DNA of 63,874 bases, the filler included, from Craspedostauros australis (taxonomy: Eukaryota), in the NCBI GenBank assembly GCA_030167865.1. It is 4 parts of 4 records of this genome, joined end to end, with 100 filler letters (N's around TTAATTAATTAA, not from the genome) between each part and the next. Parts side by side here need not be neighbours in the genome. Positions count along the whole stretch, not along the records: positions 1 to 15,441 come from JALAGF010002998.1; 3 more parts are not named here. The stretch is one strand, 5' to 3'. This document shows positions 542 to 41,148 of the stretch, one piece after another. Each line of letters begins with the position of its first letter. Position 1 is the first letter of the stretch. The translations under genes were made by a program, and so were the position numbers. The notes under the pieces were generated by a model. It was given only the letters and a program-made list of their open reading frames with translations, was not told the origin of the DNA and ran no database searches.

Positions 542-2562
542 TGGAGAGTGGAGTGGGACGCGGCCTTGGGAGATTGAAAGGAAGTCCAACAGGAGAGAGC
601 AGATGGATTGCACAACCGACGCTCGTGGATTAGATGAAGAGTGAAGGCTGGAAAAGTCGGGTGTGGAACTACAGCAATACAGAGGCAAACCAAAAGACAG
701 GGATGCTCTCTCCACCAGTGGCTCCTCTTGGTTTTACTCCACTGTGCTCGACTCTGCGACCATTCCCTCCAAGGTGCGTTTGTGATGGGAGGAATCCGCA
801 GATCAGCTGCGATTGTGTGGTTGGGGAAACTCTATCCATATGACGTGCAGTCAGGGTGCTGGTAACTGCCGCCAATAGCATGTACTACTATTCTATCATG
901 TTACATTATATAATAGAATATTCTATTCTATTCTATATAATACATCGTAGTACATGCCGTAGCTGACTGCCGCAGAGGACCCATCCATGTGATGTGGGGT
1001 GTTGCCTCTGGCGCCAACACGAAGCACCACCCCAGAGATGCTGGTCTGACGTAAGAGTCACAGATCCCGAACCAGATGATCATGTGGACACCACACGCCC
1101 GCGACAGGCTTGACGGGAACCTCCCACGCCGGTAGCAAGAGCAGCAGTTCCTCGAACGCATTCCCTACAGCAGAGTGCTTGAGGTCTTCAAGACTCTTCA
1201 GATTCGCAGTGTGACCCAAGAGCCAGTCGTTGGATGGTACCCAAGTGGTGGATCAGAATACACTCTTTGGACATTCGAGGAATCGCGAGCACAGTGCTCT
1301 CGCTTCCCTCATGTGCCTTGTACTCATGGCTAAGCGAAGCACTGCCAGAGTACTCGAGGAAAGAAAGGAGCGCCAACATTGCATTTTCCTTCTCTCTCGC
1401 CCCCTTGATGCCGGCCGCAATGGATCAGTTGTGCTGACACCCAAGACACACACGCGGACGGTGGAAGGCGCAAGGGCAAACATACGTGGGCAGGTCTAAC
1501 GAGACTCTTCGATTGCTTTCTGACGTTTGTCCCCTTCAGAATGGTTTGGTACGTCATGAGATGTTAAGTGCGCGAAGGAGTCTGGTGCACAGAAAACTGA
1601 CAACGACGCGGCGGTGGCACGGACTGTTCGCCAAGTCGCGCGCTCGGTACTGAATTGTGCGGTACTTTGCAATGGATTTGCCGCGCGGCACTGCGGCGCC
1701 GAGCGTTCCCCTAAGTACGGACGATTCATACAATAAATGAACTGTGCCACGAACATGAGCCTTCGTTGACAACACGCACTGGATCTTTGCACATAACGAG
1801 TCCAAGGGCTCCACAGCCGAAGTACTCGCAGGGACTAACAGCGGACGGGACAAATCCTGGTGGGCTGACGTGCGCTCAGTACTGCTTCTACGTCACAACC
1901 CCACCCCCAAACAGCTTCTCTGATGGTGTGACCGAAGATACGCTCACAGCACCGCGAAAATACACAAGTTCGCAAATGTTCGTACTCTTGCTTCTATGTC
2001 CCAACTCATACCGGCACTATTCCTACGGCGCTCCACTGGGCTCTACAGGGCAGCCGACACCCGAACACACACAACGCGCATGCAGCGCGCACACGCAGTC
2101 CACAGACGGCCACGAGTGATGTTGTCCTCGTATCGATACGGTGGGTGCAGCGCCTCTATTCGTGTGCGTGCGCGTACTCGTGCTGTGTTGTGGTGCGAGA
2201 TACCCCATACCCCACGACAATGGTGGTGCTGGCAATCCCCAGCGTGATTCCCGATTTGTGCTGACAGAAAAGCGAGCCGCGAAGACATGCTGTTGACATA
2301 AAATTTGTGGTCCTCTCGTGCGATTGCGTGCTCGTGGTCTTTGGTGGTTACCAACACAAAGGGGCGACAAAAACTGCTCTGTCTTCCGCTGCTCCAGCGC
2401 CACTTTGCCGAATCAGATCAAAAAACACAAACAGGTCTACGCAACCGCATTCTCGGAACAGACACAACGAGACACAAAGAGACACAAAGAGACACAACGA
2501 GACACAACGAACTGATCAACTGGAAAGACAACAAACACAGAGAGAGCGAGAGAGTAGCCACC

Positions 2563-5541
2563 ATGGACGCCGTCGACTTCGAGATCAGCAGCCTGGCGTC
2601 CAACCCCGTTGGCATGTTCGGCAACATCGCCATGAACGGCGATGAATACGTACGATGCGCTCGTTGCGGATACGGAGGTTGTGATGTTCGGGTCGCAGGC
2701 TGTGGATGTGTTTTGCACGCTGTAAGTCCAGTACTCGTTTCTACGGAGGTGGCGGTTCACCCCCAAAATGCAAAAGAACAAACCCAAAACCGCGTCATGG
2801 TGTGAAGGAGCGTCGGATGTTACGGCATCAGGAGCGTCGAAAGCACTGATCAGATGGATGCAAGAGCGGATGCAAGAGCGGATGCATGGATGCGCGCTGC
2901 ACATGAACTGCCTTCAGGCAAACCTTGGAGATTGCTGCGGTGCTCCCAACAAGATTCAAGATGCATCTTTGGACTGGCTCAGTGTGGACCATCGCGTTCG
3001 GCTTTGCAAATGCACAAATGCGCAATCCAGAGAGCAGAGCGCAGCGGGGCTCCAGCACCAACCCACACACTGTTTGATGTGAAGTCGCAGATCCAAGGCA
3101 TCTTTTTCCATTGCCCATCGTCCACTGTCCATCGACTCTCACCCCCGCTCCCTCACTTACGCAATACGTAACACGCAATACGTAACACGCAATACGTAAC
3201 ACGCAATACCCTGCCTGCCGCTCCATGCACACCACAATGGTGCGGATTGGTCCGGCGCTCTTTTTCCCTCCGGTTTGCCTTCTTTGCTCAAACCTTGGAC
3301 CACTTCCGGTCGTGGCCATGGCGGTACGCTCTCTTGTCTCTCTCATCTCTCTCATCTCCGCTGCGTGCATTGGCACATTGCGCCTCCCACTTCGTGCATT
3401 CCATGATACAATCGCAGCGATGCATCATCCTGCCACAATCAACTCCCCTTGCACATTGCCCCGCCTGTACCCGCCCGACGACCGGGCTGAACCTCTTCCC
3501 CATGTCATTCCGCGAGATCGACGAAGCCAAGCGCGCTTCCACCAGCCTCCCCAACGCGGCGAAGGGACGAGGGCGAAAGCGCAAGTCCATCACCGAACCG
3601 GGGGCCATCGACGAGAAGGTGGGAGCTTACGTCTCCGAACGCCGCACAGGCCGCTGGACAGTCGAAGAGACCGCGATGTGCGACAAGCTCATCGCGAAGT
3701 TCATGTCCGGCGAGCTCCCCATCACTGAGGGATTGAAGCTCAACGAGTTCCTCGGCAACATGCTCAAGTCCAAGCAATCGCGATTGACGAAGAAGATGAA
3801 GAATGCCAAGCTCAGCTCCAAAACCTTTCAGAAGAAGGTGGGCGCCATCGTCGACGACGCGGAGGCCCGGGAGTTTTCGGAACTCGAGGAATGCTTCTTC
3901 CAGGCCGTGCAGTGCCATCAAGAGCGCGCGGAGATCAAATTCCACATGCAGCGCGAGTGGCGGGAGCAGTTCAGCCAGTTCTGCGTCTCCATCAACCAAC
4001 CGCTCGATGCCGACAACTGGCTCAGCAGCGTCGAAGAGATGGACCGACGCGCATCGCAGGCCAGGGACGCGGCCAGAATGGCCAAGCGAAAGCTCATGAT
4101 GGGCATCGCATTGAGAACGGACTGCAGGAACCCCGACCACGGCGTCTTCATCGAGAGGACGGCATCGGAGTCCCGCGTTGCGGAACACGCAGCGCTGGAT
4201 GGGCCCGACACCGATCACACCGAGATGCTCCAGATGCTCACGGAAGAGTCCAAGCAGGGCGTGCACGCCGACATCAACGGAAAGAGCAGCCTGCTGCACT
4301 CCGCTCCTTTCCTCGCCAAGGCCATCCTGTACCTCCAGCGCCACGGCGTTCCGTTCGAGCACATCGACCTCTGGGTCCCCTCCTTCGTCCCCGCACCTGA
4401 CAATTCCAACAACACGAGCTGCCGCCTGTGCTACGCGGGCAACGCCACGGTGGAGGAGCAGACTGGTCCGGATGGCAAGACCAAGTCCAAGCTGACGCCC
4501 GACGACGAATTCAACCTATTCGCTTTTGGGGACTACAGCGAGAAGTTCTCATTCGATGTTGGCTGCGGACTACCAGGCCGAGTTTACGAGAGCGGCCGTC
4601 CTACGTGGGAGCAGAGCGTCCATAACGCACCCCATCACCACTTCGACCGTTGCGGTGGCGCGATGCAGTGGGGAATCCGTACCGTGCTCGGAATCCCAAT
4701 CGCAAGCCCCAACGTCGGCCGCATCGTGGTGTCGCTCTATTCTCGCCACGACAGGCCGAAGGACGAAGAACTCGTCGCGCGCCTGTCCGAGGAGTTCACC
4801 CGCCTCATGCCGTCGCCCAAATGGAAGCTCGTCGTGGATCTGGGCGAACCGGATCAGGCAAGAGCGGCATCTGGCGACCCCCAGACGCAGCCCGAAGCGG
4901 GTGGCGCCAAGACTGCCACTACCGAGGTGTCCGACAGCGGATCGTCAGCAGAGAAGACCTCGGGCGGGCGTGACTCTCGTCTTGACGAGGTCGTCAGTCT
5001 CCTCGGCGAGCTCATGCCGTCCGACCCCAACTCCGCTTTTGCGCCATACCTCTCCGGTTTCATGTCACTGCGCCTTTTGCTGCTGCGTCCAAGCCGTACT
5101 CCAGATGAGGACGACCTGGCCAGGACCATGTTGGACTCATTCACTTCGTTCTCCCAGGGAGGGAGATCCCGTGACGACATCGCTGTCATGCTGGCCCGTG
5201 ACTTCATGTTCCTCAGCCAACAAAAAGGTCAACCGCAGCAACAACAACATCAGCCTGCCGGTTTTTTTAGTTTAGGGCAGGGCACGGCAGCTTCGCGGGC
5301 GCCTGCTCTGTCCGAATACGACAGCGTTGACAGCGGCAACAACAACAACAACAAGAGCACTCGCAGCAATGGCCAGAATCAGAATCACAATGATGGAGGG
5401 AATGCCAATCCCCATGCCAACTTCGGGCAGGGTGACATTGGCGTGATCAACTACTCCAACTTTGAGATGCAAGGCTCGCCGGGGTTTGGACCCATCCAGG
5501 GACTCATGGGAGACAACCTCTCCATAGTATCCAACAGCTGA
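2563..5541 (+). CDS. RING-like Zn finger + Myb/SANT-like + NLP-type GAF-like domain protein, paralogue A (exons 2563-2721, 3418-5541)
   Basis: ATG at 2563 in a GCCACCATGG context. Donor GTAAGT at 2722 and acceptor CAG ending at 3417 join in phase 0 as LHA|RC, which restores CARC..CGC..H.RC..CPAC. Also contains RTGRWTVEETAMCDKLIAKF (Myb/SANT-like) and EHIDLWVP...FSFDVGCGLPGRVY...W...GIRTVLGIPI (NLP GAF-like). Confidence 0.85.
3158..3209. repeat. 14-bp minisatellite (TACGTAACACGCAA) x3 in the intron of paralogue A
   Basis: Tandem copies read directly. Confidence 0.85.
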
Positions 5542-6412
5542 CATCATGCACCGGGAGCAGCCAAGCCAGTGGAACGAATCGGATCGATCACCCATCACCA
5601 CCAACCGAGAGATCTGCGATGATGGGTGCCGCATTCTGAAGCCTGTGTGATGAGACGATCATTGTCCGTTGCATGACCACCCCCAAAGCTTGCCCCAGGG
5701 GTTAACTTGCAATGCAGGGGATGGTCATGCAACGTCTCTCAGGTGAATGAACCGACGCGCCCAATTTTGAATCCCAGGGTGCGGATATTCTGGCTGCTCC
5801 CAAGCAACAATACCCAGTCAAGCACAGGCCTGCGTATGCATGTATGCATGCGTAGATACACACGCACGTACTCATATGAACGGGTGCACGCGCACTAGCC
5901 AAGCAGCTAGATCGCCAACCAACCAAACCTACCAAAAAGAGGAGCTTTCACGTTCATCCGAACGCGGGCTCCGCACTGTATCTAACACGGGAGAGTCATC
6001 GTGGGACTCCCCTCCCAAGAAAAATGAATGTACACACACTTAAACAATGCAAACAATGCCAGCCACCTTAGTAACACTGGAATATTATCTCCTGCCAACA
6101 TGAATGCATGCTCCGTTGCGCTGCTGCATCAGCGGAGAGCGGCGCAGATGATGCGGAGCCTGTTGATTGCACAAGTACTCGCACGCAAGTACTCTGCCAT
6201 AACCGCACAGTACGACGACGACTTGGTTCAAAATTGTGGGATGAAATTACAGTTAGCTTGGGATGGCTGAACGCCTGTCTTGTTGTGGTCTCCCATGTCC
6301 GCTTGGATGTTGTTCAGGGGTGCTTGAAATGTTTGGTATCATCGAGGAGCGGCACGGCTGGAGCATTGCGTGTTGCTGGCGGTGCGTGTCTGGTCCTCAA
6401 CGTGCGCCATGA

Positions 6413-9400
6413 TCATGGATTGCTGTTATCTGCGCCACCGGTGCTTGCTCCCTGCGGGAACGCCGACTGGTGCAACGAGAAGGTGCTGTTCGTGAGATGA
6501 TTCATTGCTGCGTGTGCCCCATGCGTATCAACGTCGTTGACATTTCGGTTGTTCCCGAGATTGCTGCTGGCGGTGCTCATCCCGCCTCCGCTGTCGATGC
6601 CGCTGTGGTTGTCGCTGCTATTCTCAATGTTATCTTCTGGGGACGGCATAATCGGAGTGAGGGCTGGCGAGTATGCTTGCTGCCGCAGCAGGTTCGACAG
6701 CTGTGCCATCCCTTGCTGCTGCTGCTGCTGTTGAGATTGAGGCGCAAAATTGACGTGCGATGGTTGCTGCTGCATGTTAGAGGTGCTGGCGTTGTCGTTG
6801 CTGCTGCTATTTGCGACGTTGCCGCTGTTAGGCATGGCCACGACGGAGTTGCTAGATGCATTCGAGTTGTTCGTGTTGTTCGTGTTGATGCTGTTCGCAT
6901 CATACGTCGCTTGTGTCGGTGCCTGCGAGACCATCTGCGGCCGTAGATTCTGCTGTGGTGGCTGCTGCTGGTGAAGATGTGGCAGGTGATGTTGCTGCGG
7001 CTGCTGCTGTCGTTGCGCTGACGCACGATACTGTTGCCGATTGCTGCCAGCCATGGTCTGCGATAGTAGCATGTAGTCGCGTGCGATCATCCAAGCGATG
7101 TCGGGAGGGTTGCGCGAGCTCTTGAGGTGCGACGAGTAAGATTCAAGGATGTTTGCCAACAGAGTCTCTTCTTGTGGTGCCTTGTTCTGCTTCATCAGCA
7201 ACAGACGGAGTGACGTGAAGCCAGGCAGGTATGGTGCGTAAGCCGAGTTCTTGTGGGTCGGAATGTTCTCCGACATGAGCTTCAGCAGGGTGGGCAGTCT
7301 TGCATCAACTGGCTTTCCTGGTGTCGCTCTGGGAGGTGCCGCCGCGACATCCACCACGAGCTTCCATTTGGGTGTCGGCATGAGCTGTAATTGCGGGTGG
7401 GGGGTTGTTGATCGAAGTCGTATGTTGGTATTTGACATCGTTGCCATTCGTTCGGCGGGTTCGTGGGCATCATCAGGTGGTGAAGGAGGCATTCGGTTGA
7501 GGATGAAATGAACGGTGAGTGCGAGTGCAATTGCAAAAGTTGGATGGCATCGCGACGCACATGCTCGTATGTAGTTTACGGCCAGGAACTGGTAGGGAGG
7601 AAAATAGAGTACGAGCAGGTGTGTAGACCCTATTCCGATCCACCAAGGACCAGGATGAATGAGCCATCCGCAACGAATCGCGAATCGAGATTGGCAACCA
7701 CGTCGCCATTTCGGCTATGCCTTCACAACGAATCATATCTGTGTAGTCTTCGTATTCGCGTTGGTGGTCACGTCACTCTAGCTCCCTTCTGCCAACACCA
7801 AGCGGGAAACAGCCACCATCCAACGGACGATGCATGCGTATGCGTATACATTGGTGCCGACAAAGACGACGGCATATGATTTCCACAGTGGCAAATTGCG
7901 CTTACCTTCGTCAACTCTTCCGTGATGCGCCGGACCATGTCGGGGTCTCGACGGCGATCAAACCTGGAATAGAACAAAATAACGATACGTCCGACATTGG
8001 GGCTTGGAATGGGCACGCCGAGCACTGTCTTGATGCCCCATTGCGATGCGCCACCGCACCGTTCAAATTGACGGCTTGGCGCATTCTCCACCCCCTGCTC
8101 CCACGAGCATATCCCGGAGCTGTACACCCTCCCCGGCAATCCGCAACCAACATCAAAGGAAAACTTTTGGCTATACTCGCCGAAGGAGAGCAGGTCGAAT
8201 TGATCCTGGCTTTCCAACGTGACGGGGCGGCTCGTGTCGGGCGATATCTGCGTGTCCGTCGTGGCGCAACCGGCAAAGCAGAGGCGGCACTTCTGCTGCT
8301 GCGCCTGGTCCTGCGGGGGTGCGGCATCCGCGCCGTCCGGGGTGTGCGGCACGAACGATGGCACCCACGCATCGATGTGCTCGAAGGGGATGGCGTGACG
8401 GTGGATGTACTGGATGACCTTGCCAACGAAGGGCGATGAGTAGTTCCGGATGATCGAGCGAGGAGGCCCCTGCTTCTTCTTCCCATCCCGTCCCGCTGCC
8501 ATGGCGACGAGCGAGTTGGTGGAGGCGTGGCTCCTGCTGAGCATGCCCTCGGCGGTGGAGTCGCTGTTGGTGTTCTTGTCGATGAACACGCCCCTCTCGG
8601 GGTTCATGGTGTCCTGGCTGAGAGCGTAGCCCATCATGACCTTTCGACGGGCCATCCTGGCAGCGTCCTTGGCTTGGGATGCGCGGCGATCCATCTCCTC
8701 GACGCTGGACAGCCAGTCGTCGGCGTCGAGCTTCTGACCGATCGCGACGCAGTAGCTGCTGAACATCTCCCGCCATTCCTTCTGCATGTGGAATCGGATC
8801 TCCGCGCGCTCCAGGTCGCACTGTATGGATTTGAAGAAGGCGACCTCGAGCTCTGAGAACAGGCGGGCGTCGTTGCGATCCCCGATGTGCCCCGAGTTGC
8901 GCTTGTACGTCTTGGCGCTGAGCCTGGCGTTCTTCATCTTCTTGGTGAGTCTGGACTGCTTGGATTTGAGCATGGAGGAGAGGAAGTCATTGAGCTTGAT
9001 GCCCTCCATGAGGGGCAGATGGCCGGCCTCGAACTTCTCGATGAGCTTGTCGCAGTACGCGGTCTCCTCTGTGGTCCATCGACCGGTGCGCAGATCGTCG
9101 CCTGAGGAGGCATCATCGACGGAGGTGGTTGGGTTGAGCCTTGCGATCGTGGCATTCTTCCTCTTCTTCCCCCTCTTCATGCTCGGTGACATGTTGGCGG
9201 CTGCTGCCTTGGCCTGGTCGATTTCGTGAAAGTTCATGGGTACGAGGAAGAGCGCCTTGGCCTGCTTGGAACAGGCTGGGCACGTCGTCAATGCGACATT
9301 CTCGACCACCGGCACGCAGCGCTGCAGCGTGAAGTGATTTGACGTTTGGGGTCGAATGCAAGTGCAGCCACAAACGCAAATGCAGACGCAAGCGCAGACG

Positions 9401-10402
9401 AAAGTACAGACGCAAGTACACACAAATGCAAATGCATGGCGCCGAGTTGAGTCGTGAGTATCGGTACAGAATGATGGCAAAAACACCGACGAATGGAAAA
9501 GTGAGAGAGCGGAAGAATGAATGAGGGACAAAGATGAGCGACACGAGACCGACATCATGACGAATTGAATGGATGATGTGATGGCTTACCGAGTGCAGGA
9601 GGCAGCCGCAGCTGTGCACCTTGACGTCGAAACCATCCATGCCACAATGCTGGCAATGATTGCCAGGAACGACGGGATGAGTCGGCGGGAAGCCCAGCAT
9701 TCCATTTGAAGCAACATGCGTCATGGAGGAAAGATGACGCAGGGTGTTTGGTGACATTACTTGTGCGGTGCCAGGCGGTGGTGCGCCTGTGACAGCCGTG
9801 GCCGCATTTGGATTCATCATGGCTGCGGCTGTGACCGCGGCTGCCGCCGCCGCCGCCGCCGCTGCTGCATTGTTGAGGAGATGGGCGGCGTTGACATTGG
9901 CATGGTGCATGTTGGAGGCAATTTGTGGCGTTGGTTGCAAATGAGGCTGATGATTTGTGGTAGAGGGAACATGCATGGACTGCCCCGTCATCTGCGCATG
10001 TGCAAGTTGCTGTTGTTGTTGCTGATGGGCATGCGAGTGAGCATGAGCATTCATTTGCGGATACATCTGTGCTGGTTGCAAGTGCTGCAAGTGTTGCTGC
10101 TGTGCCATGCGAATTTGCGATTGTGGATGAGCTTGAGCCTGCGAATGAGACTGCGAGAGTTGATTGAGTTGGTGCTGGTTGTGCTGGGAATGTGGCTGGG
10201 CCTGCTGCGGCTGGGATTGCGGTGCTGGTTGCTGCTGCTGATGGTGCATTGGCGCAAAGGCGTGCAGCATATTGAGGCCGTTGTTGGCGATTCCTGACGG
10301 CTGCATCTGTAACTGCATTTGAGGTTGTGGCTGTGTCGGCGTCTCCGCCTCCGTCTTAATTTGTGTCATGAAGTTGGGCTGGGTGTGGTGGGGCGGAAGC
10401 AT
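6413..10402 (-). CDS. RING-like + Myb/SANT-like + NLP-type GAF-like protein, paralogue B (exons 10402-9590, 9321-7906, 7384-6413; start codon uncertain)
   Basis: Three long minus-strand ORFs are joined by GTAAG..CAG introns at 9589-9322 (LHS|RC) and 7905-7385 (ELTK|LMPTPKW). The spliced product is collinear with paralogue A and shares LKSKQSRLTKKMKNA, WLSSVEEMDRRASQA and FSFDVGCGLPGRVY. N- and C-termini are Q/H-rich. Confidence 0.83.
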
Positions 10403-12949: not shown

Positions 12950-15441
12950 TAATAATAATAACGCACTGATTATCCCCTCATCAGAGGGTTGCCTCGAAAG
13001 CTTTAACGTCGCCGGCTAACAGCGAACCCATACGGGCCGACTGCGCTCGAACGACCTACCTAGGTCTCTCACTCCTGGGCCTACCGCTGGTTGCCACTCC
13101 ACCGGGCCACGAAACGTACCGCACTGGGCATCCGGAATCCTCCGCTATGCTCTTCACTCTCTTTTTGTAAGGCCGAGGGGCTGCTTGTCTGCGTTCGCGT
13201 TTACCGTCGCGATCTGACTCGCCTTGCCCTTCCTGCCGCTGTTGTTGTCGAATCGGACCTCTTCCTTTTCCGTCTAACGCTGGCTGCTCGTGCCGCCTGC
13301 ACATGCTTTACCCACGTCAGCTGATTCGCTGCCGACTGTCGTCTCACCGCCGCCTCCGTTGTGAGGGTCAACAGCCGCGCGTCATCTCCCGTTAGGTTGC
13401 CTACGCCCTTCCTCCATTCTTTGCGTACTGCACGCGCTGCCTCTCGTGTCAGCTTTGCGACCGCGATCCCTGACTCGCTTTCGTGCAGTACCTTATTTCT
13501 CGCTTCCCACGCCTTCCACCGTACTTCCCACAACCCCACTATCGCTCTTGCAATCCAGTTCGCCGCCGTCCCTGGCTGTTCGTGGAGCTCCATTGTTTGC
13601 TCTTGCATTAGCCCCCACTTCTTAGACCACCGGCCCCTCACCATCATATTCCACCCTATACTTGCCTGCTCTTCAACGGCCTTGCTCAGTTGTGGCCCTT
13701 GCTCGTTCTCCAACCTCAACCCGTCGCACCATGCGCCTACCTGCCGAACTAATTCGTGTACCATCAACCCGCTTCCCCTCCCTGCCAGCATTCCTGTTTC
13801 CCACTCTTTCATAGCTGCCCGTCGCACCGCTACAGCCGTTGGGTGCTGGCACTGCATGACGTGGTCCGTCGTTTCCTCGCACTGCCCGCATATTGGGCAC
13901 AGGCTGGTCGCCCAGAATTTCCATTTGTGCATATTTCTGCCAACGGGTCCGAAACTGCATGCATGCTTTGCCACCCATTGCCTGCGCCTTGTCGTGATTC
14001 GCCCCATGGCTAATCTCGCCGCTACAATATCCACTGCTGACATCTGCTCCTTACGGATACGGCCCACTTTGCGTTGCCACCCTTTGGTCCGTTGGCCTTG
14101 TACGTAGTTGCGGAGCGTCTCCGTCAAACTCTTGCATACCTTCTCGCCGTCCAGCCACACCGACCACTCATTTGCTCCCCATTCATTGTCACTACATGCA
14201 GCTTCGCTCATTTGCGCTGCTCCGGCCTGCTTGTCGACTTCATCGTTCCAAAACGCAAATTCATCCTGTGCCACGCCGCGGTCTCGTTCCAGCTGGTGGC
14301 CATATACGTGCTTGTACCGTAGTTGTACTGGTAACCTGCGTTGTATACCCCGTATCTCCCTGAGGATGTCGAAGTGCTGAACTGCCGTACTGACGTCTTG
14401 CGTGTATTGGACTGCGTGGATGCCTGCCATTTTGTTGTCACACGCCACTACCACTGTCTTACCAGCTGTGTCATGCCGTTGGCGGTCGCGCTGCATGATG
14501 CTTTCGACTCTTCGCAGCGCCTGGAGAATCCCTCCTAGCTCTGCACGGTACGCACTCTGCACTTGTTTGCGACCTTGCACCACTGCTGCTGCTGTCACCA
14601 ACCCCTTGCGCCGTCCATGCTTGTTGAGTGAGTACGCCGCCGTGCTTCTGCCGCTTTTGAACGATCCATCTGTACTGACCACTGCATCCCCTGCTGCCAC
14701 TGCCTCCAGCCACTGCTTTTCCGCCTTGCTCAATCGTTTGTCAGACTTGGATTGACTCCGCTGGACTCTGCCGCCTGTCCCAACCACGTGTAGCTCCTGA
14801 CGCACTTCTCGCACAAACACCGCTCGCCCGCCTTCCGGTGGCCCGCTCGATGCTCGTTGCGTACGTTGGTATCGCTCCATGCCCGGAACCATTCCTTCTC
14901 TGCTGCTCCATTCAGACCACTTCCTCGGCCCATCGCGCGTCCACAGTTTTCTTCCATTCTCGGCCCGTACCGCGCCGACCTGTTCCAGTTCCCATTCCTC
15001 ACTGTGCCTTGCTTTCTTGGCTATACGCGTCATAGCTTGTTTCCATAACATCCAATCTTTCCGTGGCAGCGGTCCCTGTCTCGGCCATTGGATGTGCTCT
15101 CTTCCTCTCCACTTGCTGCCATTTTCCATTGGACTGCTCGCCACTGATCGTCGTCGCCTTGCTTCGACCACGTCTGCCACACTAACCACCTTCATCACTA
15201 TTCTGCACCTGTTCAATCGGACCCGTTGCTCTCTGCTGTATCCTTCTCTCATTAGCGCCACCATCAACCACTCGTCTCTTTCATGGACCAACCCAGCCGT
15301 GTCTGTTTTTTCTTTCAACCTTATATTGCATTCATGCGTTTCTCGCCAGACCGTCTTGACCCAACAATCTGTCGCCAGGAATGCCCACTGATTGAAATCA
15401 ATCTCGAACGCCGAGTTGCCCACGCCCACTTCGGTTTTCAT
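12950..15441 (-). mobile_element. 3' part of a non-LTR retrotransposon with RNase H and CCHC zinc knuckle (probably diatom Ambal-type), truncated by the gap
   Basis: The 746-aa ORF (13201-15441) is open up to the gap. RNase H motifs: STDGS, SAYRAELGG, VACDN, KHVYGHQ, NDEVD. Knuckle: CPICGQCEETTDHVMQC. Also QASIGW..MVRGRWS and WEARN. About 240 bp of 3' UTR ends in a (TTA)n tail at 12950-12961. Confidence 0.88.
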
Positions 15442-15541
15442 NNNNNNNNNNNNNNNNNNNNNNNNNNNNNNNNNNNNNNNNNNNNTTAATTAATTAANNN
15501 NNNNNNNNNNNNNNNNNNNNNNNNNNNNNNNNNNNNNNNNN
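15442..15541. other. Assembly gap with artificial TTAATTAATTAA linker
   Basis: 44 N + TTAATTAATTAA + 44 N, exactly 100 nt. The same structure occurs three times in the window. Confidence 0.97.
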
Positions 15542-18503: not shown

Positions 18504-21424
18504 TCAAGCTGTGGTTGCCTTGCGGAGGTTCTGAAGACCAGTGATGGCGGCCAAGTGATCCTCGGCCGCAGTGGATCGCGCCTTGGATGGAGTCGCTGCA
18601 GACTTCTTGCCCTTACTCTTTGCACCGCCCCGGACGTAACGCTTTGCCTTCGTGCCCCCCTTCTGCATTGCGTACTTCTCGCGCTGGCGTTGACGGCAGC
18701 GCACGCACTTGGTGGCGGATCCCTTCTCCCCAAAGGCCGCCCAAGGACGGAAGTTCTTGCATCCCTTGCACCACTTGATCTCCAAGCCGTTCTCCGTGAT
18801 CACCCACACCGTCACATCGCACGATGTGCAGAGTCCCTTGTTCTGGCGTGGGATGATGTGTCCCGAGCAGTCGGCCTCGTCTTTACCGGCGGAAGCAGCG
18901 TTGCTGGAAGCAGCCTTCTTCGACTTGTCCGCATTCTTGCTGACAAGAGATGCAGCGGAGCACACGCGGAGCTTTCCGCACATCACACAGTGCTTCTTGC
19001 CATCCGGCGTGGCGAGGTTGTCGGGCTTTGGACCTCCGGGAGTGCGCGACGAGTTGCGCGGTCTGGCGAGGTAATCTGGGAAGTTGACGAGCCGGTGGAA
19101 ATCTGGAAGGAGCAGGTCCTTGGTCTTGTCCGCCTCACTGCTTAGCATAGCACAAGAGTAACAGTAATGAGTGAATGAATGAGTGAGTGAATGAAATATA
19201 TGTGTGAGCGGGTTGACGATGGCGATGACGATATGGTGGATAGACATGCGAGCACAAGCGACGCCATGCCAACTTACCCCCAGTACTTGGATGGAATGGG
19301 CTCCTTCAATGGCTCGCAACGATTCGTCGATGGTGCTCTGCCGCCGCTCTCGGAGGCAACACGTTGCCATTCCGACACGGAGGCGAACTGCTGCAACGGC
19401 GATGCGGCCTGCTTCTTTGCTGCTCCGGATCGCTTGCCCTGGGCTGCGGGTTGCGGCTTCGTGGTTTTGCGAGATGCCGTTGCTTCTTCCTTCTCGGCGC
19501 TGGCACGTCTCTCCAACGAGGCATCCGCAGCAACGCCAGGAGCGCTCACTGTGGGGATCGAAGGATAATAGGGATGGGCGTTGGGAACGACCGAAGGATG
19601 AGCGGCGTACGGTGGCATGTGACCGTACGGAGACCTGTATGGAGGTGGCACGGCCGCGTACTGGTAGGCGTAGACGTAATGCGAATGGTGGGCACCCGGT
19701 GGAGGCAATCCCGGGTGACCATGGGAGACCAGATGATGCATCGGTGGCGATGACTGTGGTGGCACCGCTGCGTGCATCATCGCCGCGGGCCCAGGTGCTG
19801 CGTACTGGACCATGGCATGATGCGGAAGATCAGCGTGCACGCCGCTGCGCTTTGCCTTCGAGGCCGCAAGGATGGCAGCGATCGATTCCTCTTCTGCATC
19901 ATCTCCGGAGTGCGCACCGGGTTCTTCCTGCGCGCTTGCCTCGGCCTCCCGCCGCACTCTGGCGCTGGCCTTCTCAAAGAGCTCGGCGACTGGGCTTGTG
20001 TTGGTCGTGGACGACGATGCCGATCCATCGGAGACAACGCGTGCCTTCTTGGATTGTGGAATGTCGGAACCAAGTTGGGGGGAAGGTGACGAAGGACGCT
20101 TCTTGCCCAAGGCCGGTGTTGAGGGCGTGACAGGGGATGGAGACGTGATACCACTGCCCATGGCGTAGGTCATGTGATGTGGCAAGGCGCCTGGTGTGCC
20201 TGCTGCCGGTGGCATGCGGCCGTAGTACGCCAAGGGCGTGGAGGATGGGTGATGGTACACAAGCCTGGCATGGGGATGAGAGTGTGACATCTCGGACCAG
20301 CTGGGTGCGTAGTGCAGGTGGGTTGGATGGGTCATTCTGCGGATGGATGGTGGAGCAGGAGTCTCGAGCATGACGGAAGTCTGCTGCTCGGATGCGAATG
20401 GAGGTCTGCCGCTGTGGATGGACTGCTGGTGTTGGTGTGGCTGCTGCTGATGATGATTGCGGTGCGCGTTGTTGTTGCTCTCGCTGTTGTCGGAAGCGGC
20501 GCCGGTGTACTTGGATGCTTTCTGAAGTGCCTTTTGGCTTGCCTTTGCGGATCGTTGGGCAGATGATTCCGATGCACTTGTGCGGGTGGCTGCCTTGCGA
20601 GAATTGTGAGAGGTTTGTGAAGGTTGGCTTGAGTCGTCCTGTGCGGCGCTGCCGCCATCGTCGCTGCTGGCATCTTCGGCGGCAGGAGGAGGAGGATGAG
20701 ACGCCCGAGCCTGAGCTTTTGTTGCTGCATCCTTGGTCTTCTTGATCCGTGCCTTGCCACCAGCCTTCTTCACACGAATGGGAGACGTCGTGAGCTTGGA
20801 CGTCCCGTAAATGGAAAGGTGGGGCGGGCCGGACAGTTCGCTGGTTGGCGGGGTTGGAGGTGTCGTGCGAGGTGCGCCAAAGGGATGAAGCCGCCGGGCT
20901 GTCGGAGGGGCATCCTTCTCATCGCCGTGCTTCGTTTCCTTGTTGACATCATCCACAACGCTCTCCGTTGCATCATCGCGGCGCACATCGGCAGATCTGT
21001 TCCGCTTCTGCGCCACCTTCGATGCTGGCGATGGTGTGATCATGGCCTTCACAGTGCGACCGGCATCATTCCTCTCATCCTCGGTGCTCTCCCTGAATCG
21101 CTTCCCCTCAGCCTGCGAGTTGGCGTGGATCGGAGTCTCCGACAGCGCCTCGTGCTTTCCATTGGACCGTGCGGATGGCATCGGACTTCGCTGCGTCGTC
21201 GTCGGCGATGGGGATGGGTTCCTCCCCTCCTTGCCTCGCTTGGGAGACTTGTCGCAAGCGACTGCTGCCGCGAGAGAAAGCAGTCTGCTGGCCTGCATCC
21301 TGGCCTTTGGCGACGCCGTCAAACCCACTGGGCTGGAGCGCCGAAGAGCTTCTGGCTGGGCATCGGTCGCAGATGTTTCCAGCTGCAGCGACTCGTTCGA
21401 TGTCTGATCAGGTCGGTGGGGCAT
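18504..21424 (-). CDS. Low-complexity protein with C-terminal Cys-rich Zn-binding domain (SBP-like; putative transcription factor); exons 21424-19278, 19137-18504
   Basis: GTAAGT donor at 19277 and CAG acceptor at 19138 join in phase 2 (YWG|EADK). C-terminus: CVMCG..C..HIIPRQNKGLCTSC..WCKGCKNF..F..KCVRCRQRQREKY, followed by a basic NLS-like tail. Confidence 0.8.
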
Positions 21425-21454
21425 TGTTGCTGAATGGTATTATATTATACTCTA

Positions 21455-26604: not shown

Positions 26605-27964
26605 TGCTCTGGCCTTTCTGGATAATCTTTGGTACAAGTATGTATGTTTTTGGAAATAGTCCAACCACGTTCTGTTCCAACTTGTCCATCTCCCGCCACA
26701 GACACACGTGCTTGCGTCATTTTTCGAAACTAGACCTATCTGTCACGACTTTCATAGGCCGTCGGACATGCTGGATGATGCGTCTCAGCTCACCCTGCCG
26801 TGCACTGAACTTGAGTACGCTTCCAATTGCACAGCACGCTCGAATCACGCTTTCGTATCCTTTGGCAATGCTCTTCTTTCCATTCCCGTCGTCCTTGACT
26901 GCTCGGTTTGAATCCCTACTGCATGTGTTTTGTTGGCTTGCAGGTCCTATCAAGAGCGTGTAATGATATTGAATGTCAGAACTACTCGACGAGCTATTGT
27001 GCCATACATTCTATTATAAAACATTATATTCTATTCTACAATACAATACCATGCAATAGAGAGGAGATTGTTCCGCATCGGATGCAAGATCTCGAAGCCT
27101 CTCCGATCATTCATTCCTTGATGACGAATTGTTCGCTGTCATCGAACCTTCCCATATGTATAGTCAACAAGCGGGAGAGTCTCAGCCTCTTCCGAGTACG
27201 ATGGCAACCGGATCGAGATGTGGTGCACTTCCTGAATGATCGTGGGAGAAAGCCGGAATACATAGTATGTGTAATACTCTGAGCTACGATGATGGACAGA
27301 GCAGAAGACACGCTCTTCTTGCCAGCATCCAATCCGAAAGATCTCAACACGTCAGTGCGATCCCGGTATTTTGTCCGCCTTTTCGGTTTCATTTTATTCT
27401 CCGTCTGTGCCGAAAAAGTCATGGATGCCACCTGAACTCACACCGTTGGAACGAAGCACAACAAACGAAGGAGGCGGAGGTTGTCGGCGGCACATCTTGG
27501 GGGTCATGGCCGCTCACACATTTGCATATGTTCCGTAATGTCCAAAACATCCGCATCAGGGTCGTTGATATCCCATCCACTTTCCACTTCGCCACATCGC
27601 CACATCGCGGCCAGGCCATGTCATGCCATCGATGGCTTAGATAATAGCTGTGGTATTGCGTTTCGCAACATTCTATGCCCATGGACCGCCAGCACAACGC
27701 AATGCGACGCAATACAATGAGATGCGATGTGAGATGATGCAGCGAAGAGGAAGCCAAAGTGCTTCGTGCGCTGCGCCCTTTGGGACCGACGTCCAAGGAT
27801 CGCCAGTATGTCTCATAAAACCATAAAGAGCACCAGCTGCAACAATCACTGCAACAACCTGCGAGCCGACTGCCTCAGCAATCGCACTTCCCACCACAGC
27901 AACACCAGCAACACCAGCAACAACTCCGCAAAGCTCTCGCAACTTTCGAAAACCCGCTCACAAC

Positions 27965-30598
27965 ATGATCCGCAAGGTCGTTCGACGCATGTCCATTGGT
28001 AGCATCTCATCACTGTCCAAGTTGGCAAAGAAATCTCGCAACAAGTCGCACGGCAGCAACTCGGACATCAACTTCGACCACGAGGCATTCTCCTGCTCCT
28101 CCGACTCCTTCGGATCCATCGATTCATTTTCTTCCAATCCAGAGGGAGACGAGATAGTGCACATCATTCAAATGGACAGCGACGTTGAGGCCCAATCCGA
28201 GAACAGTGACGATGTTTCGTACTTCATCGAAGAGGTGGCCAGCCGTGGGAGCCGCAGCGATGGCAGAGACAGAGACAGCGACAGTCACAACGATAGCCAC
28301 AGTCGCAGCTACACCAACAGTCGCAGCCGTAGCTACACCGGGAGCTACAGCAGCAGCGAAAGCGGCACCGTCTTCTACAGCGACAGCAACAGCAATAGCC
28401 ACAGCCACAGCCACAGCCGTAGCTACAACCACAGCTATGGCGACAACGAAGAGATGGAGGTAGAAGTAGAGATGGAGAATGAGTCTCCCACGGCCGGTGG
28501 TGGTGAACACCCACCAGGCACTCGAAGCAGAGGCCGCATCATGGTCCAAACCGACGATCCTCGCGTCGCAGAGCAACTGCTGTTGGCGGAACAGCAGCTC
28601 GAATCCGGAAATCACAGTATGTCCTTGGAGGAGGCGCTCAACCATTCGCAACCGTCCTTCGCGGAATGCACCGTGGAGGACCTGGCCCAGTATTCGTACA
28701 ACACGGACATCATGGAGGTCGCAGATGCTGACGCCAAGGACAGCAGCAGCAGCAAACGCAAAAGCAAGAACAAGCGCCGCAGCAAGAGCAAGGACAGGTC
28801 GAAGAGCAAGCGCGGCAGCAAGGATAAGAAGACGAAGAGGAAAGACAAGAAGAAGAGCAAGCGTAGCAGCCAAGACAGGCACTCCAGGATCACCAGCGAT
28901 GACGACGACTCTTCGTACATCCTCGCAGTGAAACCCGAGGAGGAGGCATTGTTCCAGCCACACCCCCGCGCCAATGCTAACGCTAGCATGAACTTCAACG
29001 CCAACGCCACTGGCACGGGGCATGAGGGTCACAGGACAAAGGACCAGGAGAAGGAAGAGGAAGAGGAAGGGCCAGGCTACAAACGCTTCCTCAAGCCGTC
29101 GACCTGTCGCCGGGAAGAGCCCAGCGATGGCAGTGGCGACAAGACCAAGAAACCATCTCGCGATCGCTATGTCATAACGCCATCCCAGTTCTCTCCGGCC
29201 TTGCAGGCATTGATCCAGGCAGAGATCTCGGAGGGGACGGCGGCGACGGCACCGACAACCGTTTCCATCCAAGATGACCATCACGACGCTGAACCAAGAT
29301 CAAAGTCCAAGAAGAAGAGCAAGAAGTCCAAGAAATCCAAGAAAAGCAGCAAGAAGAGCAGCTCGAAAGACAAGAGCAAGCGCAGCGGCGACCATGGCAA
29401 GCCGAAGGCCTTGCAGGCACATCCCAGCTCTCATTCCACATTTTCTGCCACCTTCGGATCCAACGATGGACACTATGCCTCCGATCATCACAGCGTTGGA
29501 AACCAGAGCGGTGACATGACTGCCGTCACCATGGGAGGACCGAAGAGGGGAAAGAAGCCAAAGAGGAAGATGAAGAGGTCCTCATCAGTGAGCGATATCA
29601 ATACGACATTCGATAAGCCCACGAACAACATGATGCTCAGCGCCACCACCCACAGCCACGACCACTTCCTTGGCCACAGCCACGATCACAGTCGCAGCCG
29701 CAGCCGCAGCCGCAACTCCACCCCAAACTTCGGCATGAGCAAGAGCTGCCATTCCAAAAAGTCCATCTCCACCATGAACAAGCAAAAGCGAGGCAAGCAG
29801 AGCAGCAAGTCTGGAAGACGGGTATTGACGAAGTTCGACGTCGACAACTCCGGAGCCATTGGTGGGCATGGCAATAACAACAGCAACAAAAAGAGCCACA
29901 GCCAACACCACAGAATCAACAGTAGCAACAATAAAAACAACACCGCACACAAGCGCGGAAAGGTGGAAGCAAAAGCCCACAAACTGCCGATCAGCTCCAT
30001 CGAGTTCAAGACCGATGCGCAAGACGAAGATGACCTCAGCGACATTGAAAAGGATTTCCGCAACGACGCGAAGGCAGGATTATTCGCACCGATCTCCAAC
30101 CTTCAGCAACGCCTGTTGTCGCTCGGAGCGCCGATCGAGCACATCCAGCTCCCAGATCAGCAGGGCAACGTCATCAAGAAGCAGCACATCACCCAGAACC
30201 AGGTCCTCGTGCGCAAGGTCATGGGACGCAAGCGATCCGGTGGCAACCTGTACGATATGAACGACCTCCCACAGCGCATCGAGAAGAACTCGAGCAAGAA
30301 CAGCATGAGCAGCTTCCTGCAGGGCGGCACATCGACGGCATCCACCGGCGGTCTCAACGCATCGTGGGCCAGCCCCACACCACGCCACGCACCAAGCAAG
30401 AGTGCCATCTGGGACAATATCAATGCCGGCAAGCACAGCACGAACAAGAACGCAAAGATCCCTGGTTGGCTGTACGACGAGATGCACCGCAAGGGTCAAC
30501 TGACGACGCACAAGCATTCAAGTTCTACCGCCCATGGGATTCGCGCAGATCTGCTCGCACCAAAGCATTCCATGAAAGCAGGATATCACAACAATTAG
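27965..30598 (+). CDS. Lys/Ser/His-rich, probably disordered protein (877 aa)
   Basis: Long uninterrupted ORF with strong codon bias, poly-K/S basic tracts and SR/SH dipeptide runs. Confidence 0.8.
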   Translation: MIRKVVRRMSIGSISSLSKLAKKSRNKSHGSNSDINFDHEAFSCSSDSFGSIDSFSSNPEGDEIVHIIQMDSDVEAQSENSDDVSYFIEEVASRGSRSDGRDRDSDSHNDSHSRSYTNSRSRSYTGSYSSSESGTVFYSDSNSNSHSHSHSRSYNHSYGDNEEMEVEVEMENESPTAGGGEHPPGTRSRGRIMVQTDDPRVAEQLLLAEQQLESGNHSMSLEEALNHSQPSFAECTVEDLAQYSYNTDIMEVADADAKDSSSSKRKSKNKRRSKSKDRSKSKRGSKDKKTKRKDKKKSKRSSQDRHSRITSDDDDSSYILAVKPEEEALFQPHPRANANASMNFNANATGTGHEGHRTKDQEKEEEEEGPGYKRFLKPSTCRREEPSDGSGDKTKKPSRDRYVITPSQFSPALQALIQAEISEGTAATAPTTVSIQDDHHDAEPRSKSKKKSKKSKKSKKSSKKSSSKDKSKRSGDHGKPKALQAHPSSHSTFSATFGSNDGHYASDHHSVGNQSGDMTAVTMGGPKRGKKPKRKMKRSSSVSDINTTFDKPTNNMMLSATTHSHDHFLGHSHDHSRSRSRSRNSTPNFGMSKSCHSKKSISTMNKQKRGKQSSKSGRRVLTKFDVDNSGAIGGHGNNNSNKKSHSQHHRINSSNNKNNTAHKRGKVEAKAHKLPISSIEFKTDAQDEDDLSDIEKDFRNDAKAGLFAPISNLQQRLLSLGAPIEHIQLPDQQGNVIKKQHITQNQVLVRKVMGRKRSGGNLYDMNDLPQRIEKNSSKNSMSSFLQGGTSTASTGGLNASWASPTPRHAPSKSAIWDNINAGKHSTNKNAKIPGWLYDEMHRKGQLTTHKHSSSTAHGIRADLLAPKHSMKAGYHNN

Positions 30599-31688: not shown

Positions 31689-32855
31689 GAGGCCGCATTG
31701 GCGTTGAGGACTACATTGAGTTCTGCGATGGACTCGTATGTGGGTACCCCGACGATGGGTTCGACGACTGCCTGTGGAAAGGTGGCGAGGATCTTCTCGT
31801 GGCTGTTGGCCATGGTGATGATTTTTGGTGATGCTGGTCTTGGTGACCGAGATTTTCAAACGTTGGCTATTAGCGAACAACTGTCAATAAGACGAGTAGT
31901 GTGTGAATCAATGTTGTTCGCTAATATTATGAGATATTACATTGCTGAGCTGAGGAGTTGCGGTCTTGGCTCCTGCTAGTGTCTTGATCTGCTCTAGGAG
32001 GAAAGTGGGCGCGAGGTGCGCACTTTGCGTACGTCGGTCAGTCGGGTCACGTGCGGGACTGGAATCAATACCGCACTTCCTCGTCGTGTCTCATTGCTTT
32101 GCAAACCTCACGTGGGGTCTCATTTCTGATCGTTGGGGAGGGTCATCATCATCGCGGTTGTCGAACGGAGTTGCGATTGAACAGAAGTGATGATGGTGCT
32201 TGTGTGTGCGTGTTCGTGTGTGTCATTGTGGGCGACTGCCCAGTTGTTCAAGAACAACGAAATTCGACTAGACCGACTTGTTTTTGGCGCGGCTTTGGCG
32301 TTCGTGTTCGCTGTTGGCACCAACAAAAAGAACAACAAGGATGGCGACAGAAGATGCAATTGTTGATGGCAAGGAACACACCATTGTCGGTGTTGGCTCC
32401 GTTGCCTTGCATCACTCCACACTCGCAGGATCCTTGGTCGTCTCCACGTTCCAAGAATGTTGGGACAATGATGACTGCCGACGCCTGCGCCCACGATCAA
32501 CTTTCTCCTTCTGTGGCTGGCCACGATCACGATCAAGGACTATGTTCAAGCTGATATTCACGTTGGTGCCAAAGTTGATCGGGTGATCACAGAGTGGTAT
32601 CGCGGCAACAATGTGAAATGACAATCATCATCAAACAGTAATCAACGCAATGCCATGCACGCTGCGTGAAACAGAACATGGGATACCACCACCAACGACC
32701 ATGAAGCAGATCATGATCGCTTCATAAAAAGCAGACAGAGATGCGATCAAGCGACCACGATCATCCAAACAATCATTCAAATCATATAAAACGCCCGTCG
32801 CATTGATCTGATCTCAGCAACAAGTCATCCCTTTTCGACACACATCAGCTCCATC

Positions 32856-39420: not shown

Positions 39421-41148
39421 TCAACCGCGTGCGTCGTTATGCTTGGTGTTATGTGTTGTGTGCACGTGCATGTGTCGAATCAAGCACTCCATTATCTCTT
39501 CCTCGCCATCTTCATACGCGGCATGGAGCAACGTGTATCCATCTTCATTGGACATGGTCAAATCGTGATTCTCGTTGCCGTTGGCTTCGTTCAAGCGAAG
39601 CAGACGATCCAACAGTCCTTCATTGCCGGCGCTGCAAGCTTCCTGAATTGGTGCGTAGTCTTCGTCCGGGAGCCGGGGGTTGAGATTGATCTCGACACCG
39701 TTTGCTTGGCTGAAGTCAAGGAGACAGTCGGCCACATCTGTGTCACCATGCAAGAAGGCATGCTGAAGTGCCGTACTATCGTTCATATCTCGGGTGTTGA
39801 TCATGGCATGCGCATTGCCTTGGAAGCGGCATGATCGGAGCAACAGCTGCACCACCTCCTTATAACCATATTTACAAGCGTAATGGAGCGGGGTTTGCTC
39901 GTCGCAGTCCTGGATGTTGAAATCGATAATGGGGTCGTCACTGGTACTTGTGCGACAGAATTCGATGAAACGTTCCACTACATCCGCTTCGCCGTACTCA
40001 CAGGCATGATGCAGTGGCGTGCAGCCATGGTAGCTGTTTCGGATGTTGAAATTGATTGCCGCATAGCTGTTGGCTCGACTGAAGTCAAGAAGATCGCCGG
40101 CGATATCTGCGTCACCATTGATGCAGGCGTAGTGAAGCAGTGTTTGCCCATCCTCCTTGTCTTGAACGTTGAGGTCGATGCAGACTTCGTTGGCTTGGAT
40201 GAATTCAAGCAAGCACCTCACTCCGCCCACGTCACCATGGGCGCAAGCATGATGAAGTGCCGTTTTGTTGGACGAGTCTTGGGCGTTGATGATGGCATGT
40301 GCGTTGCCGTGGATACGAGCGGATCGAAGCAAGATCTTCACTACACCATGGTGGCCTTGTGTGCAAGCATAGTGAAGGGGAGTTAGGTTGTGACAGTCTT
40401 GAACGGTGAAATCAACTTTGAGACTATCACTAACACTGTCACTGTCACCGATACGACTGAAGTCAACGAAGTGTTCCACCACATCTGAATAACCATTCTC
40501 ACATGCATAGTGGAGAGGTGTGCGGCCATGGCCTTTGTTTCGAATGTTGACATCGATGTTGACGTTGCAGTTGGTGCGACCGAAATGAAGAAGGCATTGC
40601 ACCACGTCTGCATCGCCATTAATGCAAGCGCGATGGAGAGGGGCGTGCCCATCATTCTTTTCTGGAGTATTGAGATCGATGGTTGTGTGTTTATTGGTTG
40701 AGCAGAAGCGCAGGAGGCATCGTACCACAGCTGCGTGGCCATGTATGCAAGCAACATTGAGTGGAGTGTCCCCGCGCTTGGATCGAATGTTAACATCAAT
40801 GTTGGTACTTCCGTTGACGCGTCCGAAGTCTAGCAGGCGTTGCACCACATCCGCGTGGCCATTCAGGCAGGCATAGTGAAGTGCCGTTTGCCCGATGCGC
40901 TTGTCTTGAGTGTTGAGGTAAATCTCAATGCTCTCGCTGCCATGGTTGTCAGTTTGAAAGGAGTTGAGGAGGCACTCTACCACATCTGCATGACCATTCT
41001 CACAAGCACAATGGAGCGGTGTTTGCCCTGCGGCATTCTGGGCCATCAGCTTCGTCACGTCTCCATTCTCTTGCGCCGACACCAAATAGCGGACTTTTTC
41101 CAAATCGCCGGACTTGCATGCACGATGGAGCGGCGTCTCTCTCTTCAT
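39421..41148 (-). CDS. Ankyrin-repeat protein with long (about 42-aa) repeats (575 aa; start uncertain)
   Basis: Repeated TPLHxAC..GHADVVxCLL.F.....IDxN units. Confidence 0.88.
   Translation of the reverse strand: MKRETPLHRACKSGDLEKVRYLVSAQENGDVTKLMAQNAAGQTPLHCACENGHADVVECLLNSFQTDNHGSESIEIYLNTQDKRIGQTALHYACLNGHADVVQRLLDFGRVNGSTNIDVNIRSKRGDTPLNVACIHGHAAVVRCLLRFCSTNKHTTIDLNTPEKNDGHAPLHRACINGDADVVQCLLHFGRTNCNVNIDVNIRNKGHGRTPLHYACENGYSDVVEHFVDFSRIGDSDSVSDSLKVDFTVQDCHNLTPLHYACTQGHHGVVKILLRSARIHGNAHAIINAQDSSNKTALHHACAHGDVGGVRCLLEFIQANEVCIDLNVQDKEDGQTLLHYACINGDADIAGDLLDFSRANSYAAINFNIRNSYHGCTPLHHACEYGEADVVERFIEFCRTSTSDDPIIDFNIQDCDEQTPLHYACKYGYKEVVQLLLRSCRFQGNAHAMINTRDMNDSTALQHAFLHGDTDVADCLLDFSQANGVEINLNPRLPDEDYAPIQEACSAGNEGLLDRLLRLNEANGNENHDLTMSNEDGYTLLHAAYEDGEEEIMECLIRHMHVHTTHNTKHNDARG

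Follow-up and report, generated by a model that had tools for sequence, protein, structure and literature searches.

Diatoms dominate nitrate-driven ocean production, and we know of no established mechanism by which they sense nitrogen (N). The RGQ proteins, a name that we take to stand for RING-GAF-Gln, are among the few diatom-specific regulators that have been tied to N stress. RGQ1 was reportedly obtained by Matthijs in 2016 through DNA binding in the yeast one-hybrid system, and it is said to be nuclear and induced by N starvation. Here, two convergent genes that probably belong to this family, gene A and gene B, are described at positions 2563-10402 of a window from Craspedostauros australis (the whole stretch of DNA that was analysed, 63,874 nucleotides with filler, made of four joined parts of assembly GCA_030167865.1). 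In Phaeodactylum tricornutum, the three genes Phatr3_J50304, J44641 and J50305 are RGQ1, RGQ2 and RGQ3, respectively, and were given as "Transcription Factor", with reference to Matthijs et al., in the source data of Smith et al. 2019 (PMC6779911). The supplement of Rastogi 2018 labelled all three as bHLH-MYC_N and placed RGQ1 (242832-245774) and RGQ3 (245925-248601) directly next to each other on chr_28. J50304 (B7GDM6) also carried the Gene Ontology term zinc ion binding (supplement of PMC6156597).

The transcripts of two of these genes follow the N supply, according to the same source data of Smith et al. 2019 (PMC6779911). Without N, RGQ1 stood at 193, 213 and 185 reads per kilobase per million (RPKM) at the three time points of 15 and 45 min and 18 h, compared with 35, 33 and 204 RPKM in ammonium and 91, 101 and 209 RPKM in nitrate at the same time points; 15 min after nitrite, it stood at 82 RPKM. 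RGQ2 showed 98, 113 and 178 RPKM without N versus 4.4, 5.2 and 136 RPKM in nitrate, and at 15 min its values were 4.9 RPKM in ammonium and 8.1 RPKM in nitrite. Both transcripts thus went down within 15 min of the addition of any N form and were back by 18 h. The authors described the RGQs as "broadly responsive to N-replete or N-deplete status" and stated that no strong transcription-factor candidate for the nitrate response had emerged. Since the response of RGQ1 and RGQ2 was common to ammonium, nitrite and nitrate, it fits general N-status regulators better than nitrate-specific ones, as far as transcripts rather than ligand binding are concerned.

The analysis indicated that A and B are copies of diatom RGQ genes, most likely the counterparts of RGQ1 and RGQ3, and that they would encode nuclear, N-status transcription regulators. 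We put the probability of this reading, including the working model given below, at about 0.8. The assignment to an RGQ1/RGQ3-type pair was made because of the shared rare domain, the zinc binding, the Gln-rich stretches, the diatom distribution and the adjacency of the two genes, and the nuclear, N-linked role would be carried over to A and B by analogy with what the literature says of the RGQ family. A sequence-only reading of the window, made without database searches, had proposed an N-linked regulator with an independently assembled architecture. The architecture is not an unrecognised one, as it turned out to match the published RGQ ("RING-domain") family of P. tricornutum; the regulator was right in kind, since RGQ1-3 have been listed as transcription factors and N status affects two of the three, but was already in print. 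The observation is real and the family is known, so that it amounts to a correct rediscovery of RGQ and not to a new system. The additions to the known family are modest and leave its classification unchanged: the placement of the GAF fold, an orphan three-helix candidate for DNA binding, and an ancient convergent pair.

The region contained two convergent spliced paralogues, as had been proposed, with 53% identity over 482 amino acids (E 2e-175). Gene A, on the + strand, encodes 760 amino acids from an ATG at 2563 to a stop codon at 5539-5541. Gene B, on the - strand, encodes 1066 amino acids from an ATG at 10402 to a stop codon at 6415-6413, with exons at 10402-9590, 9321-7906 and 7384-6416. 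All three introns of the two genes had GTAAG...CAG boundaries, and the GC content was about 0.51-0.64 in this intron-bearing eukaryotic genome. Every motif named in the sequence-only reading was found in both genes, namely the Cys/His finger, RTGRWTxEE, WVPSF and FSFDVGCGLPGRVY...W. The features are given below; P0005 is a full-length homologue and P0271 a transcriptome-derived one.

2563 to 2721, + strand: gene A exon 1 (53 amino acids), 72% identical to residues 4-56 of P0005
From 2656, + strand: within gene A exon 1, finger ligands 1-5 (C32, C35, C47, C49, H52)
2722 to 3417, + strand: gene A intron, 696 nucleotides, GTAAGT...CAG, interrupting the finger
3418 to 5541, + strand: gene A exon 2 with the stop codon (707 amino acids)
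3418 to 3468, + strand: second half of the gene A RING-type finger (C, x11, C-x2-C)
3643 to 3810, + strand: gene A three-helix RTGRWT domain, exon-2 residues 76-131 (SANT/Myb-like, unconfirmed)
3856 to 4257, + strand: linker of gene A, conserved in the alignment and helical in the predicted structure (exon-2 residues 147-280)
4294 to 4812, + strand: gene A GAF-fold domain of the MYC_N/NLP branch, exon-2 residues 293-465, including WVPSF and GLPGRVY
4963 to 5229, + strand: conserved domain of four helices near the C terminus of gene A (exon-2 residues 516-604; 520-604 in the predicted structure)
5542 to 6412: 3' spacer of 871 nucleotides that separates the stop codons of the convergent genes
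6413 to 7384, - strand: gene B exon 3 with the stop codon (323 amino acids), containing the C-terminal helical domain (7303-7064) and a Gln-rich tail
7385 to 7905, - strand: gene B intron 2, 521 nucleotides, without counterpart in gene A; the junction is contiguous in P0271
7906 to 9321, - strand: gene B exon 2 (472 amino acids), starting with the second half of the finger (9321-9271)
Within gene B exon 2, - strand: RTGRWT domain (9090-8923), helical linker and GAF-fold domain (8445-7906)
9322 to 9589, - strand: gene B intron 1, 268 nucleotides, interrupting the finger where the intron of gene A does
9590 to 10402, - strand: gene B exon 1 (271 amino acids), a Gln/Ala/His-rich extension followed by the first half of the finger (9655-9590)

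The alignment of exon 1 of gene A to P0005 stopped precisely where exon 2 took over, and both exon junctions of gene B were contiguous in P0271. The gene calls P0066 and P0257 from metagenomes run on through an intron at the position where the finger of A is interrupted, which marks the split finger as a trait of the family. In the sequencing run X1, one contig was unbroken over 2400-3188, through exon 1 of A into the intron, so the run looks like DNA and is uninformative on splicing. A tandem repeat with a unit of about 14 nucleotides in about 3.5 copies was seen by eye in the same intron at about 3158-3210, and the X1 contigs break there. The start codon is the least certain part of the gene B model, because the closest homologue P0271 lacks the 247-residue extension ahead of the finger (10402-9656, - strand), which is Gln/Ala/His-rich with an Ala run. 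This extension is either a lineage-specific low-complexity N terminus, or the true start codon lies downstream. Chance open reading frames (ORFs) and pseudogenes were ruled out by the intact genes, the canonical splice sites and the hundreds of conserved relatives.

The finger of A and B, C-x2-C-x11-C-x-C-x2-H-x2-C-x11-C-x2-C, spans the junction of exons 1 and 2. It has eight Cys/His ligands of the C4HC3 class, with the spacing of RING-H2 but a Cys at the fourth place. Among 147 fetched relatives with at least 110 residues ahead of the RxGRW motif, the strict finger pattern was matched by 62 and a looser one by 4 more. Many of the 81 misses were unspliced or truncated calls starting at the equivalent of exon 2, or spacing variants of centric diatoms. 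The full-length alignment A2 was picked by the finger pattern, so that the invariance of the eight ligands in it holds by construction. When the A2 profile was compared with the PDB (E<=10), 59 matches were obtained, consisting of 47 RING chains, 5 PHD fingers, 5 EGL1/MYC3 chains and 2 unrelated chains; the best RING match was CBL (4a49, E 0.0048). This bore out the RING-like finger that had been read from the sequence. Pfam RING models touched few of the 45 relatives, with zf-RING_2 in 2 (0.0047), zf-C3HC4_3 in 1 and zf-RING-like in 1. In the predicted structure of P0005, the finger had a predicted local distance difference test (pLDDT) score of 87-95. Such a finger could mean that the proteins are primarily RING E3 ubiquitin ligases, with a GAF-like domain that recruits substrates and only an indirect association with DNA. 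The profile indeed matched the RINGs of bona fide E3s (CBL, RNF13, BRE1 and RNF38, E 0.005-0.07), and the ligands had the RING-H2 spacing apart from the fourth. However, these matches were marginal, zf-RING_2 touched only the 2 relatives mentioned, and the residue after the first Cys, which in active RINGs is usually hydrophobic at the E2 contact, was not constant across the 49 fingers listed (N, A, L, S, T or V, among others). The family is also called transcription factors where Smith et al. treat it (PMC6779911), and a function mainly as a ligase appears unlikely.

The finger is followed by a domain that starts with RTGRWTxEE and ends with KSKQSRLTKKMKNA. AlphaFold2 predicted three helices in it at residues 82-97, 108-115 and 120-130 (exon-2 numbering of A), with pLDDT >90. 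In the 90-sequence alignment A1, this domain contained 8 of the 21 invariant columns (R76, G78, W80, E84, R122, L123, K125 and K128). At E<=10, the three-helix segments of A and B, each searched alone, gave no Pfam match; the 24 Pfam families listed for the 45 relatives included neither Myb nor SANT, and no Myb or SANT chain appeared in the profile searches of the PDB (E<=10). Structure searches with the 605-residue model covered residues 293-474, as matches to the GAF domain took up both result lists. The Myb-SANT-like domain of the sequence-only reading therefore stood as a confident three-helix prediction but not as a sequence match in Pfam or the PDB. A Myb/SANT-like domain is plausible as a reading of the model because of the three helices and the W-T-x-E-E start, and we consider this invariant, database-orphan domain to be a candidate DNA-binding module. 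A search of shorter proteins with the domain gave 52 matches, all diatoms where named, which look like fragments of the same family; none of the 52 carried a Pfam label. No Myb gene was found in the rest of the window. The Atlas clusters nearest to the three-helix domain were unnamed, and the first of them was commonest in Oomycota (0.90), which is taken as a lead only.

The domain with WVPSF and GLPGRVY matched GAF folds by structure and by profile. The leading Foldseek matches were EGL3 and MYC3 (E 5e-8 to 1e-5), followed, down to 6e-4, by the NreA-derived NitrOFF1 (2e-5), the GAF domains of PDE6, NreA (2e-4 to 5e-4, template modelling score on the target 0.60-0.64) and other GAFs. The A1 profile found EGL1 (E 2.2e-6) and MYC3 (E 2e-3) in the PDB. 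The predicted structure thus matched both the fold of the MYC3/EGL3 N-terminal domain and the sheet-and-helix fold of GAF, and the GAF fold that had been proposed for this domain was confirmed. In Pfam searches of the 45 relatives at E<=1, bHLH-MYC_N was found in all 45 as the top family (best 9e-9), compared with GAF_2 in 28, GAF in 11 and GAF_NLP (PF22922) in 2 (best 1e-4). The window proteins matched bHLH-MYC_N (PF14215) at E 1e-5, neither of them matched GAF_NLP at E<=1, and a precomputed PF14215 label was present on most database relatives. The nearest named clusters in a language-model comparison were plant GAF_NLP (score 0.93, 168-177 shared features), again only a lead. On the basis of the model, the domain is judged to be a true GAF fold, nearest to the N-terminal domains of plant MYC/EGL3 and NLP proteins. 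The earlier label "NLP-type" is too narrow, given that MYC/EGL3 N-terminal domains are the nearest relatives among solved structures and curated families; through WVP and GLPGRV, the sequence-only reading had found the correct part of the GAF clan, the plant MYC_N/NLP branch.

The nature of the closest relatives bears on what the domain may do. It could be a protein-docking platform in the manner of plant MYC/EGL3, where a repressor or a partner of the Myb type would bind, perhaps the three-helix domain of the same protein or that of the neighbouring paralogue. The bHLH-MYC_N label on every relative and the predicted template modelling (pTM) score of 0.67 of the 605-residue model, which suggests a fixed packing between the domains, argue for docking. 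On the other hand, no candidate partner is known, the identity to the plant domains is only 16-19%, and a common fold does not prove a common mode of action, which leaves docking as a tentative proposal. Alternatively, the proteins could be direct nitrate sensors of the NLP7/NreA type, in which nitrate in the GAF pocket switches the regulator on or off. The confirmed GAF fold, the presence of NreA mutants and NitrOFF1 among the Foldseek matches (E 2e-5 to 5e-4), the language-model clusters mentioned above, and the match of GAF_NLP to the two relatives are consistent with nitrate binding. Against this, MYC3 and EGL3, the closest solved relatives, dock proteins through this domain according to their PDB entry titles, and GAF_NLP was missing from both window proteins at the threshold given. 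The RGQ1 and RGQ2 transcripts also react alike to ammonium, nitrite and nitrate in the data of PMC6779911, which speaks to transcript level and not to ligand binding. Direct nitrate sensing is therefore regarded as very improbable, and docking was rated above it because the closest structural relatives dock JAZ or MYB partners.

A conserved linker, predicted to be helical, precedes the GAF-fold domain (residues 147-280), and a conserved C-terminal four-helix domain follows it, ahead of a Gln-rich, low-complexity tail. In the best windows of 60 amino acids, Gln reached 40% (residues 53-112) and 28% (exon-3 residues 99-158) in B, and 18% in A. Pfam searches of the window proteins at E<=1 gave no match to RWP-RK, PB1 or bHLH, and RWP-RK, PB1 and HLH were absent from the 24 families listed for the 45 relatives, in agreement with the sequence-only reading, which had seen neither RWP-RK nor PB1. 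Membership of the NLP family was ruled out by the absence of these two domains.

The family is large. A word-indexed search found 923 relatives at E<=1e-3, and an exhaustive search found 1097 clusters of 50% identity at E<=1e-3, with 292 of them at E<=1e-30. All matches that carry an organism name, a minority of the total, were diatoms. The named genera included Nitzschia, Pseudo-nitzschia, Seminavis, Fistulifera, Epithemia, Fragilariopsis, Fragilaria, Odontella, Thalassiosira, Cyclotella and Skeletonema, and the top match (83%) was in the same 90% cluster as a transcriptome protein of Stauroneis constricta. NCBI and UniRef give two relatives from Seminavis robusta (P0006 and P0329) the name "phosphotransferase system component", which was presumably transferred automatically because bacterial PtsP has a GAF domain and which is misleading for the family.

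In a quick IQ-TREE tree of 55 rows (LG+G4), A and B fell into separate clades. The A clade of 11 rows, with a Shimodaira-Hasegawa-like approximate likelihood ratio (SH-aLRT) support of 100, contained sequences of Seminavis, Fistulifera, Nitzschia, Pseudo-nitzschia and Epithemia (ACA910_016313), and the B clade of 9 rows (SH-aLRT 98) contained Epithemia ACA910_016314; the tree also held a third, deeper clade. The locus tags of this Epithemia pair are consecutive, and the longest contig given for each gene is 239,569 bp, which is read as one and the same contig. Among 27 metagenome loci with an A-like gene, only four had at least 2.5 kb of sequence downstream, and a convergent B-like gene was present there in three of the four (L008, L014 and L016). 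None of the metagenome loci had a B-like gene upstream of the A-like gene. Two fragments from Fragilaria crotonensis both list a 47,583-bp contig and have locus tags three apart. The neighbours in Epithemia, the metagenomes and Fragilaria imply that the convergent pair is old and maintained, and a neighbour pair of the RGQ1/RGQ3 type is older than the split of several pennate lineages.

Several points weigh against the assignment of A and B to RGQ and against parts of the working model. The membership was judged from shared architecture, domain label, zinc annotation and adjacency rather than from an alignment; the matches listed include no named P. tricornutum protein, and A and B are not individually assignable to RGQ1 or RGQ3. 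With 26.4 bits for A and 26.0 bits for B, both window proteins were under the Pfam gathering cut-off of bHLH-MYC_N (30.2). The positions of RGQ1 and RGQ3 in the supplement of Rastogi 2018 come without strands. RGQ3 was flat at 17-29 RPKM across the N treatments in the data given by Smith et al. (PMC6779911), so not every member is N-regulated at the transcript level. The fourth informative metagenome locus, L019, has an A-like gene at 1091-2563 but no B-like gene in the 3.9 kb downstream, which may reflect a wider spacer or the loss of the partner. Finally, the DNA-binding role of the three-helix domain is without sequence support, given the empty Pfam result at E<=10.

In the working model for A and B as RGQ proteins, the three-helix domain RTGRWT...KQSRLTKKMKNA would be the module that contacts DNA, and the Gln-rich tails may serve activation. 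The GAF domain of the MYC_N/NLP type would be the regulatory input, which may receive a small molecule that reports N status or dock a partner, as in the plant relatives, and the C4HC3 finger may serve protein contacts or ubiquitin transfer. A bolder version would make RGQ a fusion, in a single chain, of both kinds of partner in the plant MYB-bHLH module. An unannotated, stramenopile-specific Myb/SANT-like part with three helices would bind DNA, the GAF domain would read N status directly by binding nitrate or an N metabolite and thereby gate DNA binding or ubiquitination by the RING, and the ancient convergent pair of the RGQ1/RGQ3 type would be an obligate heterodimer. This version is quite improbable in our estimate; if it were true, RGQ fusion proteins would be the long-sought one-component N sensors of diatoms.

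Elsewhere in the window, four ORFs with ankyrin repeats were found within 19 kb, at 32790-34817 (+), 39424-41202 (-), 42855-45191 (-) and 49125-51188 (+). All four matched Ank_2 (E 1e-83 to 1e-120) and together look like a local ankyrin gene cluster; a weak BTB match (E 9e-4) was found in addition at 42855-45191. The ORF at 57699-61214 (-), of 1172 amino acids, matched Arrestin_C (E 4e-11) and no other Pfam family. Nothing ties the ankyrin genes or the Arrestin_C protein to the A/B pair. Three long open frames had no Pfam match at E<=1e-3, at 13204-15489 (-, 762 amino acids), 19277-21439 (-, 721 amino acids) and 27827-30595 (+, 923 amino acids).

The comparison with known GAF-domain systems places A and B at different distances from each of them. 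NreA, the bacterial nitrate-binding GAF protein, has the same fold, with the Foldseek scores given above, but its match is weaker than that of plant MYC_N and no better than those of many unrelated GAFs, and it is a single-domain bacterial protein. The plant NLPs, such as NLP7, belong to the same sub-branch of GAF domains as A and B, with a first strand of the WVP type and GLPGRV in common, and they are N-linked transcription regulators, as RGQ is. Unlike the NLPs, A and B have neither RWP-RK nor PB1 and carry the RING finger and the three-helix domain where the NLPs have their modules for DNA binding and oligomerisation, and GAF_NLP was found in 0 of the 2 window proteins and 2 of the 45 relatives. 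MYC2/MYC3 and GL3/EGL3 (PF14215) have the core F-x-F..G-x-G-[LI]-P-G...W in common with the A/B family. They differ in that A and B lack bHLH, show 16-19% identity and score below the Pfam gathering threshold, and in that the plant domains dock JAZ or MYB, whereas no such partner is known for A and B. The closest system is RGQ1-3. A and B have an N-terminal RING-type finger, and RGQ1 is annotated as zinc-binding; bHLH-MYC_N is found on A and B (E 1e-5) as on all three RGQ proteins; and A and B are neighbours in the window just as RGQ1 is next to RGQ3 on chr_28. The Gln-rich regions of A and B would suit the name of the family, if the Q stands for Gln as we presume, and the diatom distribution of the relatives of A and B is likewise that of RGQ.

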